From contig JAEOTS010000059.1 of the NCBI GenBank assembly GCA_016839745.1, positions 1 to 44,164 of the forward strand: a DNA stretch of 44,164 nucleotides. The letters are read 5' to 3'. The notes below the pieces were generated by a model. It had not been told where the DNA came from, did not search any database, and saw only the letters and a list, made by a program, of their open reading frames with translations. The position numbers and the translations under genes are program-made. Below are positions 3 to 43,545 of this stretch, in pieces. Origin of the DNA: Promethearchaeota archaeon. Its GTDB lineage: Archaea; Asgardarchaeota; Lokiarchaeia; Sigyniarchaeales; SOKP01. Position 1 is the stretch's first letter. Each line of letters begins with the position of its first letter.

Positions 3-1106
3 GACTTGAAAATTGTTTGGAAAAAATGGTTAATTAAGAAGTCATTATACAGTAAGGAATCTGAGGTAAATAAGTTAAAGAAACTTGAAAATTTTACTAC
101 TACTCCTGTAGTAACTTCTGGAATAACAAATGGGATATTTTTATGCTGTACTTTGCTCTTAAATCCGGGAGAATTCATTATATCTCCAAATAAGAGATGG
201 GGGAATTATGATAATATCATTGAGAAATTAATCGGGGCTAAAATCAAATCATTCGATTTTTTCATTGAAGAAAAATTCAATATTCAGGGATTAGAAAACG
301 CCATTTATGAAATTTCTGAAAACCAAGAAAAGTTAGTCTTAATTTTAGGATTTCCTAACAATCCTACAGGTTATATCCCTAATAATGAAGAATTAGATGT
401 AATTATTAATAGATTAAAAGAAGTTCAAGAAGATATATCTAAACCGATTATTGTTTTAGTTGACGATGCTTACGAGCCATACATTTATTCTGAAAATGTA
501 ATAAATCGTTCGATTTTTTACGCATTACACGAATTAGAGCAAGATATAATTCCTATTAAGCTAGATGGAATAACAAAGGAAATGTTACTTTATGGAGGGC
601 GTATAGGATTCATTACAATTGGGTTAAAGCCGAATTGGGTTGACAATCAAAAAGAATTAACCGTTTTAAAATCTGAATTAAACAATAAGTTATCCGGGTT
701 AGTTAGAACTACTGTTTCAAATTCAAATCACTTCTATCAAACCATTATCGTCAAACTCTTTAAGGATATCGGTATGGACGGTTTAATCCAAAAACGAGAT
801 AGAGTCAAAAATCTCCTTAAAGAGAGATACAAGAAAATTAATAGTGAACTAAAAAAGATTAATAATTCGAATTTTTCAGTAGATCCAAACGCGGGTGGTT
901 TCTTTATCTTTGTTAATTTAAACCCTAATAAAATTAGTGCTAACCACTTTGCAGATCACCTATTAAGAAAATATAAAATAGGAGTGATCCCTCTTGAAAA
1001 AGAAAGTGATAAAATAAATGGAATTAGAATAGCCTACTGTTCTATAGATTTAACAAATATTCCCGAGTTTGTTAGCCGAATAAATCAAGCGTTAAATGAT
1101 TTTTGA
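3..1106 (+). CDS. PLP-dependent aminotransferase class I/II (5'-truncated by window edge)
   Basis: Motifs PNNPTG, DDAY, KLDGITK (PLP Lys), GGRIGF, GGFF, IRIAY. The frame is open upstream of the TTG at 6, so the true start probably lies outside the window. Confidence 0.9.
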   Translation, partial: DLKIVWKKWLIKKSLYSKESEVNKLKKLENFTTTPVVTSGITNGIFLCCTLLLNPGEFIISPNKRWGNYDNIIEKLIGAKIKSFDFFIEEKFNIQGLENAIYEISENQEKLVLILGFPNNPTGYIPNNEELDVIINRLKEVQEDISKPIIVLVDDAYEPYIYSENVINRSIFYALHELEQDIIPIKLDGITKEMLLYGGRIGFITIGLKPNWVDNQKELTVLKSELNNKLSGLVRTTVSNSNHFYQTIIVKLFKDIGMDGLIQKRDRVKNLLKERYKKINSELKKINNSNFSVDPNAGGFFIFVNLNPNKISANHFADHLLRKYKIGVIPLEKESDKINGIRIAYCSIDLTNIPEFVSRINQALNDF

Positions 1107-1231
1107 GTTAGTTCAAATATTTTCTATATATTATCCCTTTACCTTTTATTTGTTTTTGCACACAGTTAAAAAGTCTGAATTTATAATTTTGTTATAATAA
1201 ATTTGTTAAAAAAATATTTGAGGATTATTAT

Positions 1232-37511: not shown

Positions 37512-38930
37512 GTGAGAATTTCTAAATTGATGACAATTGCTGAATTAAAAGCAAATTATTCGCGGAAAAAGCATGGAGTATCACATCGGGATGACAATTA
37601 TAAATTAATGGTTAAGTATTATCCAGCTAACTATGAACCGCATAACAATTTTCTTTACGCTTTTTTATGTTTTTTGTACGATGGGGTAAACAAAATTGAA
37701 GAAATTAAAAAAAAAATGTGTAACCTTTTTATTTCATCAACATCACAAGTAATAGTTGGAGAGGAAGACGTAAAAGAGTATTATCTAATTGCGATACGCA
37801 AAGGTTTGATTAAAGATAATAACGGTGAAATAAAACTTACAGAAGAAGGCAGGAAATTAGTTGAAGTCAGCTACCACCATAATCTATACACTTCCTATTA
37901 CATGAGAATTTTTTTGTCTGAGAAAACAGTTATGATAGGTACAGCACTATTTCTAATCATCATTTCTCTATTAAAAATTTTTACGGGGTTACAATTAGGT
38001 TCTCAAGCAATGCTTACAGAGGGATTCGAGAACTTTACAGATTTATTCAAGATTGGAATAGTTGGTTTATTAGGAATAAAACTTAAAAAAGACAAGTTAG
38101 GGAGTATTATAATTATATGCTTGATGATGTTCACGGGGGTAACCCTTGTTTGGTCAGGTATTGAGGCTTTATTAGATCTTTCTCCTATTGTTCCAACAGT
38201 AGAAGCATATATTATTGGTTTTGTGTCAATTGCTTTAAATGCGGGTTTAGCGTTCCTTAAAAGTATGGTTGGAAGAGCTTCTGGAAACCTTTCTCTATTA
38301 AGCGATTCTAAGGATTCGTTATTAAATGTAAGAATTTCCATTGGAGTTTTGATTGGATTTACTTTTGCGTTATTTAATATTTATTTTGTAGATTCTGTTA
38401 TTGGAATTATTATTGCTATTTTCGTTTTTAAGGAAGGGATTGAAGTATTAAGAGAAATCTTGGCGAAAGATGAAAATTTCGATATTACTTCAATAAGGGT
38501 CGTAGCAGACACCATTTATGATAATAGATTGACTGCATACATCTTAGGTAGTATAAGAAGAGAAAACCTAACGATTAAAAAATTGGTTGATAATTTTGAA
38601 GCGGGGTTAGCTCTTGGGCGCCATTATTATGCGGGATTCGCTGATTTCTTCTATACTGGTTTAGGAGCAAAAACTGCCGCAAAATATATTACTGAACTAA
38701 TAAATGGGGAATATATGGAAATTATTAACGATAAGTTGTTTTTAACAAAGAAAGGGTTGAAAGCGTTCTATCGTGCAAAAGCGAAAGAGTTTCGAGGACG
38801 AAGCCAGAGTATTACGATCAGATCTAAATTTAAATTAAAAGATGTTTATTGTGTTATTGTAATTATACTTATCTTGCTGTTAATAATATTTGGTCCGCAG
38901 ATTAATATATGGATAACCAATTTGTGGTAA
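37512..38930 (+). CDS. Cation diffusion facilitator (CDF)-like TM domain flanked by winged-helix-like domains
   Basis: KIFTG...GSQAMLTEGFENFTD, SG.LSLLSDSKDS, VDSVIGIIIA....KEG; flanking segments end in KGLI....IKLTEEGR and GEYM......FLTKKG; C-terminal TM. Confidence 0.75.
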   Translation: MRISKLMTIAELKANYSRKKHGVSHRDDNYKLMVKYYPANYEPHNNFLYAFLCFLYDGVNKIEEIKKKMCNLFISSTSQVIVGEEDVKEYYLIAIRKGLIKDNNGEIKLTEEGRKLVEVSYHHNLYTSYYMRIFLSEKTVMIGTALFLIIISLLKIFTGLQLGSQAMLTEGFENFTDLFKIGIVGLLGIKLKKDKLGSIIIICLMMFTGVTLVWSGIEALLDLSPIVPTVEAYIIGFVSIALNAGLAFLKSMVGRASGNLSLLSDSKDSLLNVRISIGVLIGFTFALFNIYFVDSVIGIIIAIFVFKEGIEVLREILAKDENFDITSIRVVADTIYDNRLTAYILGSIRRENLTIKKLVDNFEAGLALGRHYYAGFADFFYTGLGAKTAAKYITELINGEYMEIINDKLFLTKKGLKAFYRAKAKEFRGRSQSITIRSKFKLKDVYCVIVIILILLLIIFGPQINIWITNLW

Positions 38931-38953: not shown

Positions 38954-40207
38954 CTACATATCTTTATTATTATAATAATCTGACTCCAAATTGGGAAAGA
39001 TTTTTTTCTTTCTCCCTTCACTTTTGAAATTTATTAGGTTGAGATCCTTTAACTTATCGACGTGATATTGAATAGTTTTATGATCTACCTTAAAGTGTTT
39101 TGTTATTATGCTATTCCATAGACCTGGTTCTTTTTCTATCATTTCTAAAATCTCTAATGTCAATTTACTCTTACTTAACTGAAGATCAAGATTTGAGATA
39201 GGATTTTTTTGGTAATATGGAAAGTACGCAATAAAATTTCCTATTCTCTTTTTCCCCACAACTTTGTACGTTTCTAAAATATCGAGGTGCCATACGAGAT
39301 TACCTGCGGCTATTTCAGTTTTTCTTAATAACTCGTTGAAATGAATTCCAGGTTCTTTAAGAATTAAATCAATAATTTTATTCCTATTCTCGTTTTCTAA
39401 AACATCTTCTAAGCTTAAACGATGTGCACCTTTTTCAATTGGTATTGTTCTAGTTTTAAGATACTGGAAATAATCTTTTTTTGAAATTAAAATAGCAAGT
39501 GAGGCAATTCCTACCGCACCTACAATTAAAACAATTACAAAAATCCAATCGTCAAAGGCATTACTGACTTCATAAAAAGTAATAAAATATTCAGTATCTG
39601 CTTGTAGGTTAGAGACGGATCCCGTTAAAGAAACTTCTGAACTTGATTCATTTAACTCCTCGATTGTATCAATAAGCACCCATGAGTCTTGCGAAGATTC
39701 ATACAACGCTAAAGAATAATCTAAATTAGGGATTAATCCGTATTGAGTCCTTTTACTGCTACTTATAGTCAATTCATCTATAGATGTATTAGTTTTAATT
39801 CGAAGAATACAATTATACCCATATCGAAATTGAGTCTCGCCTCTTCTTGGTCCCTGAGGTGGTTGAGGCATTCCAAAATTCTGCATTAAAACTTTAGAAC
39901 TTACATTGAGTGATATAGGGTTACTATTGTTAATCTGAAAAAAGATCTGACGATTTTCGATATTATTATCATACTCAATGTTAAGATCGATAAAATTATC
40001 AGTTGAGATATCGAAAATAATGTTGTTAAAAAAACTATATTTAACAGATTCGTTAGGATAAATCCTATCCTGAGTAGAGAATCCTGGAATATTTTCAGTT
40101 CTATGTGATAAAACGTGAGAAATTAGAATATTGAAATTAATGAAAACTAACAATAACACAAAGATACTGAATAATTTCGATCTGCTCTTTATTTTCAATT
40201 TAATCAT
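38954..40207 (-). CDS. Single-pass membrane-anchored transcriptional regulator with tandem winged-HTH domains
   Basis: N-terminal signal/TM, ~185-aa beta-rich ectodomain, TM (WIFVIV...AILISKK), then two wHTH: NRNKIIDLI..EPGIHFNEL......G.L.WHL..LE and EILEMI..EPG...........TIQYHV.KL....LI (COG3398-like). Confidence 0.85.
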   Translation of the reverse strand: MIKLKIKSRSKLFSIFVLLLVFINFNILISHVLSHRTENIPGFSTQDRIYPNESVKYSFFNNIIFDISTDNFIDLNIEYDNNIENRQIFFQINNSNPISLNVSSKVLMQNFGMPQPPQGPRRGETQFRYGYNCILRIKTNTSIDELTISSSKRTQYGLIPNLDYSLALYESSQDSWVLIDTIEELNESSSEVSLTGSVSNLQADTEYFITFYEVSNAFDDWIFVIVLIVGAVGIASLAILISKKDYFQYLKTRTIPIEKGAHRLSLEDVLENENRNKIIDLILKEPGIHFNELLRKTEIAAGNLVWHLDILETYKVVGKKRIGNFIAYFPYYQKNPISNLDLQLSKSKLTLEILEMIEKEPGLWNSIITKHFKVDHKTIQYHVDKLKDLNLINFKSEGRKKKIFPNLESDYYNNKDM

Positions 40208-40289
40208 ATATAATAATCCAATTTTTGATCGTAAGAATATTTTTTTAAAATAAAAAAAAAATTTTGTTATATATTTATTAATTTACAAC

Positions 40290-40988
40290 CTATTTTCTCT
40301 TTTTTATGTAGAACACTGAAGCGATTATTATTAGGGCAGCAACTCCGCCACCAATGGTGAATCCTAAGATTAGCATAGTGTAATCTGGTAAGAGTATTGT
40401 CCATGTTGAAAAATGTGATACTTCAGCAGTTAGATAACCATCATCCACAGTCGTAGGTACGCCAACCCATTCTTCGGTTGTTTCGTCGTAATAAGCAAAT
40501 TGACCCATTTGATTTTCGTTAGTTGCTCTTATTCTCATTCTTGCGCGTGTAAAAGTTCCATTACAATCTATAGAAATAACAAATCCTTCTTGGTATTGGT
40601 ATCGGTTGCGATTTCTGTTTTGATATGTGTTTCCCATCATTAGCCCTAATTGCACCTGTTCTTCAGTACAAGTCATAGTCATTTGAAGATCGCCATTTCC
40701 TTCAATTTCTAGAGCAAAGTCTTTAACACCGATTCTTAAAGCCTCACATTCAAGGTCTAAATCTAGATTAACGTTAGCCATTACCCTTAATTGAGTTCTC
40801 TGCCTAAATCGAAACATAGTCGCAATATTAGCTTGTACCTGTGCTTGATGTGAATCTGTAGGGACCTCAACGACCTGATCGGGATCAGCAATCGCTACAA
40901 CATTAAACGATGTGATCGTCGAAAATAGGATCATTAGGAAAAAAGTGCCTAAGAGAATTTTACTTAATTTTTTCATGTTTTTTTTCAC
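40290..40988 (-). CDS. Surface protein with signal peptide, GPS/GAIN-like HFS motif and C-terminal membrane anchor
   Basis: Basic-hydrophobic N-terminus; YYDE...EW..V.T.....LTAEVSHFSTWTIL directly before a TM helix and KKRK tail. Confidence 0.75.
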   Translation of the reverse strand: MKKNMKKLSKILLGTFFLMILFSTITSFNVVAIADPDQVVEVPTDSHQAQVQANIATMFRFRQRTQLRVMANVNLDLDLECEALRIGVKDFALEIEGNGDLQMTMTCTEEQVQLGLMMGNTYQNRNRNRYQYQEGFVISIDCNGTFTRARMRIRATNENQMGQFAYYDETTEEWVGVPTTVDDGYLTAEVSHFSTWTILLPDYTMLILGFTIGGGVAALIIIASVFYIKKRK

Positions 40989-41289
40989 TAAATTGTTTTA
41001 ATTAATACAAAAAAAGGGCATATAAAAAGGATTGAGGAATAACATTACCCGATTGAAAAAGAAAAATTTTATACAATGTTTTCTAAAAAACTATCGCCCA
41101 ATTGCATTTTTAGATGGAGCAATAAAAACTTAAATTATGAAACTTCTTAATCCTTAAGTTTTAATACAATCATTTTGAAGATATAATTATAACTTTAAAA
41201 TATTATAAAAATATTAAAAAGAAATTCAGATTAAATTTATTTTAATATGAATAAAAACAAATTTTAATTTTAGAAATGGAGAAAAGCTT

Positions 41290-43545
41290 ATGAGCTTAAA
41301 AGAATTTACGAAGGAAATTTTCACGAGATATGGTTTCACGGAAGATCAAATCAATGCTTACATCGTTTATCTTAGAGTCCCAAGAGCTACATCATCTGAA
41401 GTCTACCTCTCCTTAGCAGAAGAACATCCCGAGTTGACATATGAATCCGTTCTTGAAATTACTGATTGGTTAGTGGAAAAAGGCTTTCTCAAAAAAGTAA
41501 CTGGGATTGTAGATAGATTTATTCCTTTAGAACCATTCTTTGAATTGTATATTGGAGAATCCAAAATCTTTAGAGACGAGATTGGTAAAATCAAGGACTC
41601 GATCTTAGCGGATCAATCAAATCGATTTGAAAAATTGGAAGCTATTCAAGATAAAAGTGTTAATGAAGTAGTAACTGCTGTTGATGATCAACTTAAAACT
41701 TTTTTTGATGATTCGGATACTAAAAACAATAATAAAAGAGACAGAATTAATAGCTCTAGAAACCGATTCACAGACACCTCAAAAACTTTGGAAGAAAATT
41801 TACATTCTATTATGGAAACGCTAAACTCTAATCTCAAGAATATTAGCGATACTAGAGTAAAAGAAAATGAATCAATGGTGAATAAAACTAAAGACGGTAT
41901 TACAGGCTTAATATCAAATTTATTAGTCGATTTTACAAAAAGAGTAGAAGAATTAGAAAGGGAATTGAAAAGCGATTTGGACGATCACGTCGACAGACAT
42001 CAAACTATCGCTAATGATCTTAAGCCAAGAATGGAACAAATTCTCGAAAAATATCTCGAACGCATGGACAAAATAGTTATCGATTTGAAAGAGAGGATTT
42101 CAAATCTATTAAAAGAACACTTAAGTCATCTTAAAAACACAACTGACACGCTCCAAACTAATTTGAAAGCTACTGTTGACGAAAGACACAGAGTCTTAAC
42201 GGATCAAACTAACGATTTTAAAAGCATGACTTTAACGCTAATTGATAATCTGTTAGAACACGCAAATAGATTTACGGACTTTACTGAAGAAATGGCGAAA
42301 AAAGGCTTTTTCTGGATGGGAAAGAAGAAAAAATTCAAAGCAAGGCACGAAACAACTATTCAAAATATCTTAATATATACTGAACCAATGAAGGATGATT
42401 TTACAACCACTAGTGAAGATTATATTAAAAACACAAGGGAAACAACAGATGGTTTAAAGACAGATGTTACCGAGATAATGACAACTGAGAACGATAATGT
42501 TGTTACAGAAACTACAGACCTTGATCATAAAGCTCAAGAAACAATCAACGTTCAATTAGAAACGCTGGCAACAGATATGGCGGGTGAAATTGACACTACC
42601 TTGCAAAATGGCGTAAAAGATTGTTCTGACACCACGGTTAAATTGAAAGATTCTTTAGAAAACTCGCTTAAAACACATCACAGACAATACGATGAAGCTA
42701 TTACTAGACATAAAGAGGAATCATTAAGGCATTATAACGAGTACGACACTGATGTCAAGAGAATTAAAGACGACTGGATTAGGGACCTCGATGATAAATT
42801 TATAGGTGGAAAAAGGGACACTTCAGATAAAATTACCGCTGAGATTAACTTATGGGGTGATGAGTCAGCAGATTTGGATAGAAATTTAAGTGAAATGTTA
42901 ATAGATCATAAATCCAAATATGAGGAAAATGCGAAAATCTTAGAAAATAGTCTCTCTACTACCACTCGAGATACTACACAGAATATTAAAGATGCAATAG
43001 CAGATTTCACTCTTCAATTTATGAATTCTATTGACGACGGTACCGAGCTTGCTGAAAAAAATGAAAATAAACTTGGCGATATACACAAAGCTTCAAGTTC
43101 TATTCCAGAAATAAAAGATATTACTACTTGGCAAGTAGTAGGACGAGACGCGTTAATAGCTGCTATAAAGGACGCTATTTATAGGGTTAAATCATCGATC
43201 ATTATTGTAATGCCCTATGTAATACCTGAGATTTTACAAATTATAAGCGAATACGCTTATCAGAAGAAAGCTGTGCGCTTTATGCTTACCTCACGCTTCG
43301 AGATGGGGCAGTATGGTGATATAATACGCAAAATGATGGGGTTAGGCAACATCCAGTTCAGACAACTTAGTGGCGCAGGAGAATTCTTCGCACTCACTCG
43401 AGACGCAGAGGAAGTCATAATTGGTCCCGCAACTGACAAAGAAGGCGAGATGATAAGCGTCATTTCCAATCAAAGCGCGTTCAGTATTTTATATAGTCAG
43501 TTTATAGGGCCTATTTTTCAGGCTAATTCGAGACCTATTAAGTAA
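41290..43545 (+). CDS. TrmB-like protein: N-terminal wHTH, ~520-aa helical insert, C-terminal PLD-like/TrmB effector-type domain
   Basis: YGFTEDQINAYIVYL....ATSSEV...LVEKGFL......RFIPLEP; long amphipathic helical region; W.VVGRDAL...IKDAI.R.KSSIIIVMP...RDAEEVIIGP. Confidence 0.78.
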   Translation: MSLKEFTKEIFTRYGFTEDQINAYIVYLRVPRATSSEVYLSLAEEHPELTYESVLEITDWLVEKGFLKKVTGIVDRFIPLEPFFELYIGESKIFRDEIGKIKDSILADQSNRFEKLEAIQDKSVNEVVTAVDDQLKTFFDDSDTKNNNKRDRINSSRNRFTDTSKTLEENLHSIMETLNSNLKNISDTRVKENESMVNKTKDGITGLISNLLVDFTKRVEELERELKSDLDDHVDRHQTIANDLKPRMEQILEKYLERMDKIVIDLKERISNLLKEHLSHLKNTTDTLQTNLKATVDERHRVLTDQTNDFKSMTLTLIDNLLEHANRFTDFTEEMAKKGFFWMGKKKKFKARHETTIQNILIYTEPMKDDFTTTSEDYIKNTRETTDGLKTDVTEIMTTENDNVVTETTDLDHKAQETINVQLETLATDMAGEIDTTLQNGVKDCSDTTVKLKDSLENSLKTHHRQYDEAITRHKEESLRHYNEYDTDVKRIKDDWIRDLDDKFIGGKRDTSDKITAEINLWGDESADLDRNLSEMLIDHKSKYEENAKILENSLSTTTRDTTQNIKDAIADFTLQFMNSIDDGTELAEKNENKLGDIHKASSSIPEIKDITTWQVVGRDALIAAIKDAIYRVKSSIIIVMPYVIPEILQIISEYAYQKKAVRFMLTSRFEMGQYGDIIRKMMGLGNIQFRQLSGAGEFFALTRDAEEVIIGPATDKEGEMISVISNQSAFSILYSQFIGPIFQANSRPIK

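Follow-up and report, generated by a model that had tools for sequence, protein, structure and literature searches.

A cargo-less MAIN/GAIN_B-like membrane protein of Lokiarchaeia with a predicted autoproteolysis site and a winged-helix paralogue as its neighbour

We wanted to know whether a short membrane protein of a Lokiarchaeial genome carries a site of self-cleavage, and what such a protein might do beside the gene that follows it. The protein is encoded on contig JAEOTS010000059.1 (assembly GCA_016839745.1, Promethearchaeota archaeon); the whole stretch of 44,164 nucleotides that was analysed is referred to as the window. A preliminary description, made from the letters of the window, had noted an H-F-S motif close to the membrane, compared its surroundings with the GPS consensus and proposed cis-autoproteolysis between F193 and S194. 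The open reading frame has the following parts, with residues numbered from the GTG as in that description.

40290..40988, minus strand: whole ORF, 232 amino acids counted from GTG, stop codon TAG at 40290-40292; cargo-less MAIN/GAIN_B-like membrane protein
40974-40976, minus strand: ATG, probable true start, giving 228 amino acids with the N-terminus MKKLSK
40887..40976, minus strand: N-terminal signal peptide or signal anchor, MKKLSKILLGTFFLMILFSTITSFNVVAIA (AlphaFold2 helix 5-23, low pLDDT)
40380..40880, minus strand: extracellular beta-sandwich, residues 37-203 (approximately 165 amino acids), GAIN_B/ZU5-like (AlphaFold2, Foldseek, VIA)
40407..40415, minus strand: H192-F193-S194, predicted autoproteolysis motif, scissile bond between F193 and S194 (conservation and model)
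40386..40406, minus strand: last beta-strand TWTILLP, residues 195-201 (DSSP strand E195-201)
40293..40379, minus strand: C-terminal TM helix 204-228 with a GxxxG-like run, then a KKRK stop-transfer tail (AlphaFold2 helix 204-231; family alignment)

The upstream GTG is out of frame with the conserved ATG in orthologues, and this ATG lies four codons later. The protein is therefore probably 228 amino acids long, as its database homologues are annotated (approximately 228), and the motif becomes H188-F189-S190. All homologues in the alignment share an n-h-c leader pattern, which suggests that the N-terminal leader is a signal peptide. The sandwich begins approximately 3 residues past the leader, and neither hmmscan nor the AlphaFold2 model revealed any other domain, in line with the earlier remark that the protein has almost no cargo. 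We found the string quoted in the preliminary description to be exact on the translation of 40290-40988 (minus strand), with the codons of H192 at 40413-40415, of F193 at 40410-40412 and of S194 at 40407-40409, and S194 does stand ten residues ahead of the TM helix. The strand TWTILLP is followed by PDY, the TM helix and KKRK; the surface anchor C-terminal to the domain is thus this helix with its basic tail and not a sortase or SLH anchor. The region had also been called cysteine-free. This is true of residues 160-232 but not of the ectodomain, which contains three cysteines (C81, C107 and C142).

A single N-x-T sequon, N143-G-T (40560-40562, minus strand), is present on the sandwich. Since most homologues have N-x-[ST] at the N143 column, it is a possible N-glycosylation site. 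Two sediment metatranscriptomes contained contigs covering the HFS gene, one of them at an identity of at least 99%. Such RNA-library contigs are a weak sign of expression, and strand and co-transcription are not readable from them.

We assessed how well the motif is kept among relatives. There were approximately 280 word-indexed homologues of the HFS protein, and the best 120 of these were 72-95% identical; those carrying names among the same best 120 of approximately 280 came from Lokiarchaeota/Promethearchaeota MAGs, with one labelled Thorarchaeota. When 1.84 billion cluster representatives were searched exhaustively with phmmer, 98 of them matched. Every domain-containing copy in these 98 had H-[FLY]-[ST] at the motif site, except P0156, and the motif was followed by x-[WYF]-x-[VIL]-[LIV], proteins with two or three tandem copies included. 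The strand after the motif kept the pattern [ST]W[TA][VI]L in the cluster representatives. When we aligned 54 sequences (mean column identity 24%), the only near-invariant columns were F61, W164, H192, F193 and S194. The near-invariance of the motif holds although the family diverges to about 20% identity.

Standard profiles did not recognise the protein. Pfam and NCBIfam scans of it and of the 54 family members gave no significant match (DUF5803, E 0.054, was sub-threshold), and phmmer and hmmsearch against PDB sequences returned only noise for the HFS protein. The Pfam GPS profile (PF01825) had no match in the HFS protein by hmmscan and none in the whole genome at E<=1, and the Pfam ZU5 profile (PF00791) had none in the HFS protein, the 54 family members or the genome. 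The HFS protein belongs to neither the GPS nor the ZU5 family of Pfam.

The family is centred on one group of archaea. Only archaeal clusters matched the HFS protein in the ESM Atlas. Its own genome has exactly two copies of the domain, one in the HFS gene and one in a paralogue, and the family was present in 127 of the 151 sampled genomes of the class, nearly all inside the order and usually with two matches. In the other Asgard families sampled, most matches began at about position 89-138 of the profile and ran to its C-terminal end, and they were often tandem arrays in longer ORFs. A search for longer relatives found two proteins of approximately 617 amino acids only.

Some of these relatives have layouts of their own. 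P0127, P0193, P0195 and P0200, and likewise proteins of other Asgard genomes, contain two or three tandem HFS domains, each with HFS intact, and a single C-terminal TM helix after the last copy. Cleavage in every tandem copy would turn such a protein into a string of modules joined by non-covalent contacts. There is also a second paralogue class, represented by P0123 (306 amino acids), with an insert of approximately 75 residues of CxCxC-type repeats (CECKCQDECQC...) inside the sandwich. This class keeps HFS and the TM helix, and it occupies second loci in several Lokiarchaeial genomes, for example G049:C18:65404-66273.

The C-terminus of the protein could be read in another way, as an archaeosortase/exosortase sorting signal of the GGIII type, made of the TM helix and KKRK, with enzyme-driven release unrelated to HFS. 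The layout of helix and basic tail does resemble sorting signals, and NCBIfam GG_III-CTERM gave a weak match (E 0.11, 12.5 bits vs the cut-off of 22). This match is sub-threshold, no conserved signature motif precedes the helix besides HFS and its strand, and the invariance of HFS would be left unexplained. The GGG of this helix, described earlier as a helix-breaker, is present at 213-215 but confined to close relatives in the family alignment; other orthologues have IIGIVAAL, VGVVVGIV and similar stretches at this site, and a GxxxG-like spacing is commoner. As neither GGG nor the rest of the TM sequence was conserved, we dropped the sorting-signal idea, which we consider very improbable.

To describe the fold, an AlphaFold2 model of the HFS protein was built on the 54-sequence family alignment. 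The mean pLDDT was 85.7, with values >90 over most of the ectodomain, and the model showed an all-beta sandwich at residues 37-203. Its last hairpin consists of strand 185-190, a turn S-H-F-S and strand 195-201, after which comes helix 204-231 (AlphaFold2 and DSSP). We compared this model with known structures in two ways. In Foldseek against the PDB, GAIN domains were at the top (BAI2 8oek, BAI3 4dlo, CD97 9mqr; probability 0.95-0.99, E about 1e-2), with ankyrin ZU5 a little below. VIA-align was run against 48,161 representative chains and gave CELSR1 GAIN (Z 6.7), CD97 (6.3), CARD8 FIIND (5.8), BAI3 (5.6) and ankyrin-B ZU5 (5.6). When VIA was applied to Foldseek's list, BAI3 GAIN reached Z 7.4 (rmsd 3.5 A, 128 residues, model 44..203), rNLRP1 FIIND 6.5 and ankyrin ZU5 6.1. 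All of these Z values are below 8, which is middling by the tool's own standard, so the match to the GAIN fold rests on the consistency of the hit lists and on the register of the cleavage site. Generic glycosidase beta-sandwiches also scored Z 5-6, but over the C-terminal two-thirds of the domain only, whereas the self-cleaving families lead two independent rankings and span the whole domain.

The register was read from chains that are N-terminal cleavage fragments. Mouse GPR56 (224..382), human NLRP1 (1081..1212) and GPR110 (..566) all aligned up to model residue 193. The cleavage site of GPR56 is H381-L382/T383 (PMC13123842), and in NLRP1 Ser-1213 of SF/S is the nucleophile (PMC3210808). 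Because the fragment chains end at model residue 193, F193 would be the P1 position. Both the conservation of HFS and its place in the turn of the last hairpin, within a sandwich of the GAIN_B/ZU5 type (AlphaFold2, Foldseek, VIA), agree with the preliminary description.

Since the GAIN domains of adhesion GPCRs and polycystin-1 (PF01825) were the best structural matches over the whole domain and agreed in cleavage-site register, and since they share the H-hydrophobic-S/T motif and, between it and the nearby membrane, a hydrophobic strand, one could take the protein for a true, adhesion-GPCR-like GPS/GAIN member, in which an STWTILL Stachel laid bare by shedding is the tethered agonist of a membrane receptor. 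We found a sequence link pointing the same way. The remote homologue P0207 (958 amino acids) matched Pfam GPS at residues 412-447 with 27.8 bits vs the gathering threshold of 22.5, and BLASTP aligned query residues 164-201 with P0207 410-447, placing H192-F193-S194 over H440-L441-T442. However, the HFS protein differs from these receptors in several respects. Its model is without the helical GAIN_A subdomain and ends in a single C-terminal TM helix, not in a 7TM region; GPS disulfide cysteines are absent from residues 160-232; the Pfam GPS profile is silent on this protein and across its genome; and only 3 residues separate the strand from the single TM helix. The earlier likening to GPS therefore stands at the level of fold and, through P0207, of sequence, and it fails for the Pfam profile, GAIN_A and the GPS cysteines. 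The Stachel interpretation of STWTILL fell away, as the protein has no 7TM receptor on which the strand could act, and we regard receptor agonism of this kind as highly improbable.

A second large protein extended the sequence bridge. P0218, which is SLH-anchored, 1460 amino acids long and has the motif HFT, matched with E 6.7e-4 and gave a probability of 88% against the family profile in hhalign. The links of P0207 (E 2e-5) and P0218 to the HFS family span the last approximately 45 residues. Through these large bacterial surface proteins the family is tied, remotely and only indirectly, to proven carriers of MAIN (Microbial Autoproteolysis INducing) domains, the name given by Brogan & Rudner to microbial GAIN_B-like domains (bioRxiv 10.64898/2026.05.12.724683). 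The likenesses to MAIN proteins are the GAIN_B-like sandwich, the HFS turn before the last strand, its position just outside a surface anchor and the probable signal peptide. In B. subtilis YfkN, Edman degradation placed the cut between F and S of HFS; replacement of S by A abolished cleavage, S-to-T restored it, and the fragments stayed associated (bioRxiv 10.64898/2026.05.12.724683). A typical MAIN protein has a mean mass of 158 kDa and joins enzymatic or adhesive cargo to MAIN and to a sortase or SLH anchor (bioRxiv 10.64898/2026.05.12.724683). Unlike these, the HFS protein has no cargo, a plain TM anchor and an obligate neighbour of the type pseudo-MAIN-TM-2xwHTH. In the parts of the supplementary tables of Brogan & Rudner available to us, the archaeal entries were Bathyarchaeota, with no Asgard entry and no winged-helix partner. 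We would class the HFS protein as a variant of the MAIN domain that lacks cargo and has a TM anchor.

The motif itself has a longer history. PIDD ZU5 and Nup98 classically cleave themselves at an HFS motif, in which the buried Phe strains the backbone and Ser is the nucleophile (PMC3210808), and ZU5, GPS and the Nup98 domain were joined in one superfamily by Zhang et al. 2012, who noted bacterial surface versions (PMC3482391). The HFS protein is like ZU5/FIIND (PIDD, NLRP1, CARD8) and Nup98 in its motif (SFS in FIIND), in the predicted cut before Ser and in the predicted burial of the Phe, and the fold matches to ZU5/FIIND had Z 5.8-6.5. It is unlike them in that they are cytoplasmic or nuclear eukaryotic proteins, in which ZU5 is followed by UPA and death-fold domains, and in that the Pfam ZU5 profile does not detect it.

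Self-cleavage is not universal for this fold, since it is missing from many ZU5 domains and from some GAIN domains. The HFS protein might likewise be a non-cleaving GAIN/ZU5-like sandwich, comparable to the ZU5 domains of ankyrin or UNC5, and a plain surface or partner subunit in which HFS merely packs the last hairpin. Ankyrin ZU5 domains are not known to self-cleave, and these scored about as well as GAIN domains in VIA. Burial of the Phe is structural in Nup98, PIDD and CARD8 (PMC3210808). Against this stands the paralogue, which has the same fold without the His and the Ser.

38954..40207, minus strand: downstream paralogue of 417 amino acids; signal anchor, pseudo-MAIN sandwich 34-216, TM 220-238, cytoplasmic part of about 240-417 with two winged helices
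39581-39589, minus strand: Y207-F208-I209 of the paralogue in place of HFS (hhalign and AlphaFold2 model)

The ectodomain of the paralogue matched the HFS domain in hhalign with 98% probability (E 1.8e-13). In its AlphaFold2 model (pLDDT 80) the sandwich recurs, YFI 207-209 occupies the turn that precedes the last strand, and the model has tandem-wHTH fold matches; Pfam matches were HTH_HVO_0163_N, HTH_24 and HTH_5. In 20 orthologues of the paralogue the motif site was Y-[FY]-[IVF] and never H..S. The paralogue is thus a natural control: it keeps the aromatic residue, the fold itself does not require His and Ser, and that both are invariant in the HFS lineage speaks for a chemical role and not for packing. 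Further, His and Ser stay near-invariant down to about 20% identity, the third position is only S or T, and HX(S/T) is the rule of the cleaving GAIN and MAIN domains. A merely structural role of HFS is in our estimation unlikely, though it is the strongest of the competing explanations.

We consider it likely that the product of the ORF is a type-I membrane protein with nothing in its ectodomain but a single autoproteolysis domain of the GAIN_B/ZU5 (MAIN) type. Autoproteolysis between F193 and S194 is well supported as a prediction, because conservation, fold, register, the sequence bridge and the bacterial MAIN precedent agree, and the preliminary description, with its GAIN/GPS-like self-cleavage site ten residues from the membrane, appears right in its core. 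The steps of cleavage can be proposed by analogy with GAIN domains and bacterial MAIN domains, whose chemistry is proven. Once the protein has been exported and has folded, the buried F193, probably packed against F61 and W164, would strain the backbone, and H192 would activate S194. An N-O acyl shift and hydrolysis would then cut the chain between F193 and S194. The outer fragment of approximately 160 amino acids and 18 kDa would be kept non-covalently by the strand S194-TWTILLP, which would stay on the stump of the TM helix, until force or unfolding pulled the outer fragment off.

What could a cleavage module without cargo be used for? The paralogue was found directly 3' of the HFS gene in 29 of the 29 related loci from other genomes. 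The lack of cargo and the constant adjacency to a non-cleavable TM-wHTH paralogue suggest that this membrane-tethered regulator may have the HFS protein as its labile sensor or as a partner subunit. The regulatory, rather than adhesive, role proposed in the preliminary description would fit the conserved pairing. GxxxG-type small-residue spacings occur in both TM helices, GFTIG... in the HFS protein (40293-40379, minus strand) and GAVGIAS in the paralogue (39494-39550, minus strand), and they would fit helix-helix pairing between the two.

Fused forms also exist. In P0185 (two contigs) and in P0137, one chain holds an intact HFS domain, a TM helix and the double wHTH known from the paralogue. 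P0137 is a singleton on one 2.5-kb contig and may have arisen by recombination between the two neighbouring genes. A search with the P0185 ectodomain found only P0185 itself.

We also looked at the DNA around the pair, where the following elements lie.

41020..41050, minus strand: conserved promoter block, about 45-65 nt upstream of the ATG, conserved in orthologous loci
41036-41050, minus strand: semi-palindromic box GGGTAATGTTATTCC (upstream alignment)
41029-41035, minus strand: TCAATCC, part of the promoter block
41020-41028, minus strand: TATA-like TTTTTATAT, part of the promoter block
40252..40261, minus strand: T10 run between the HFS gene and the paralogue, resembling an archaeal oligo-T terminator

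In the alignment of upstream regions the conserved block reads GGGnAnnnTTATTCC-TCAATCC-TTTTTATA, and in some relatives the core of the box is a perfect palindrome, GGAATAATTATTCC. If the HFS protein does serve the paralogue as sensor or partner subunit, the box would be the likely operator. A second promoter-like site was not found in the 89%-complete genome with a PWM, with the core GGGNANNNTTATTCC or with the palindrome GGAA-W6-TTCC, and the counts of the box pattern in this genome were within or near those of shuffles. As no second convincing box was found in the genome, the box could here be no more than an auto-regulatory site. A T7-T11 run occupies the same place in the related loci that have an intergenic stretch, with one exception, L023. 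The T10 run may be a terminator, and with a T-run conserved between the genes the pair may not be a simple operon.

From these elements a split transmembrane device could be imagined. The cleaved MAIN protein would dock on the double-wHTH regulator, with its ectodomain against the pseudo-ectodomain and the two TM helices against each other, and mechanical or chemical loss of the outer fragment would switch the regulator at the pair's own promoter, the GGG..TTATTCC box. The rarity of the fused forms, the T-run between the genes and the absence of a second promoter box in this genome count against the signalling step, and we put the device forward as a tentative idea that is rather more doubtful than probable. 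Among known systems, RsgI anti-sigma factors with SEAL domains come close to it, as they combine an extracellular autoproteolytic beta-sandwich, one TM helix and control of transcription (per Brogan & Rudner). They differ in that sensor and regulator form one chain, in place of the two paralogous chains here, and in that they act on transcription as anti-sigma factors and not through a DNA-binding wHTH. The SEA-like fold and the cleavage motif of RsgI SEAL domains are also different from those of the HFS protein. For MAIN domains, Brogan & Rudner state outright that the stump has been tied to no signalling (bioRxiv 10.64898/2026.05.12.724683).

Two other genes flank the pair. Divergently upstream, at 41290-43545 (plus strand), lies a gene for a long, helical, coiled-coil-like protein of 751 amino acids with weak apolipoprotein and ZorA-type coiled-coil matches, and this gene has the same position in most of the 29 related loci. 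At 37512-38930 (plus strand), convergent with the wHTH paralogue, is a gene for a cation-efflux (CDF) membrane core (Pfam Cation_efflux, E 7e-19) with winged-helix-like flanks (HTH_45, weak). Its C-terminal end is kept beside the pair in some loci.

Animal adhesion GPCRs rely on GAIN-type autoproteolysis for mechanosensing, and the host lineage studied here is widely regarded as comprising the closest known archaeal relatives of eukaryotes. MAIN was described only in 2026, and the sole function given for it was the release of large surface cargo (bioRxiv 10.64898/2026.05.12.724683). The Lokiarchaeial family differs from this: the cleavage module stands alone, it is anchored by a TM helix, and it is coupled, through strict gene neighbourhood and rare fusions, to a membrane transcription factor with a dead copy of the domain. 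The HFS protein is a small, tractable protein for asking whether archaeal MAIN domains cleave, and it bears on whether GAIN-like cleavage already served transmembrane signalling in Asgard archaea. Should the split transmembrane device prove true, it would be the first prokaryotic case in which gene regulation is coupled to GAIN-type autoproteolysis.
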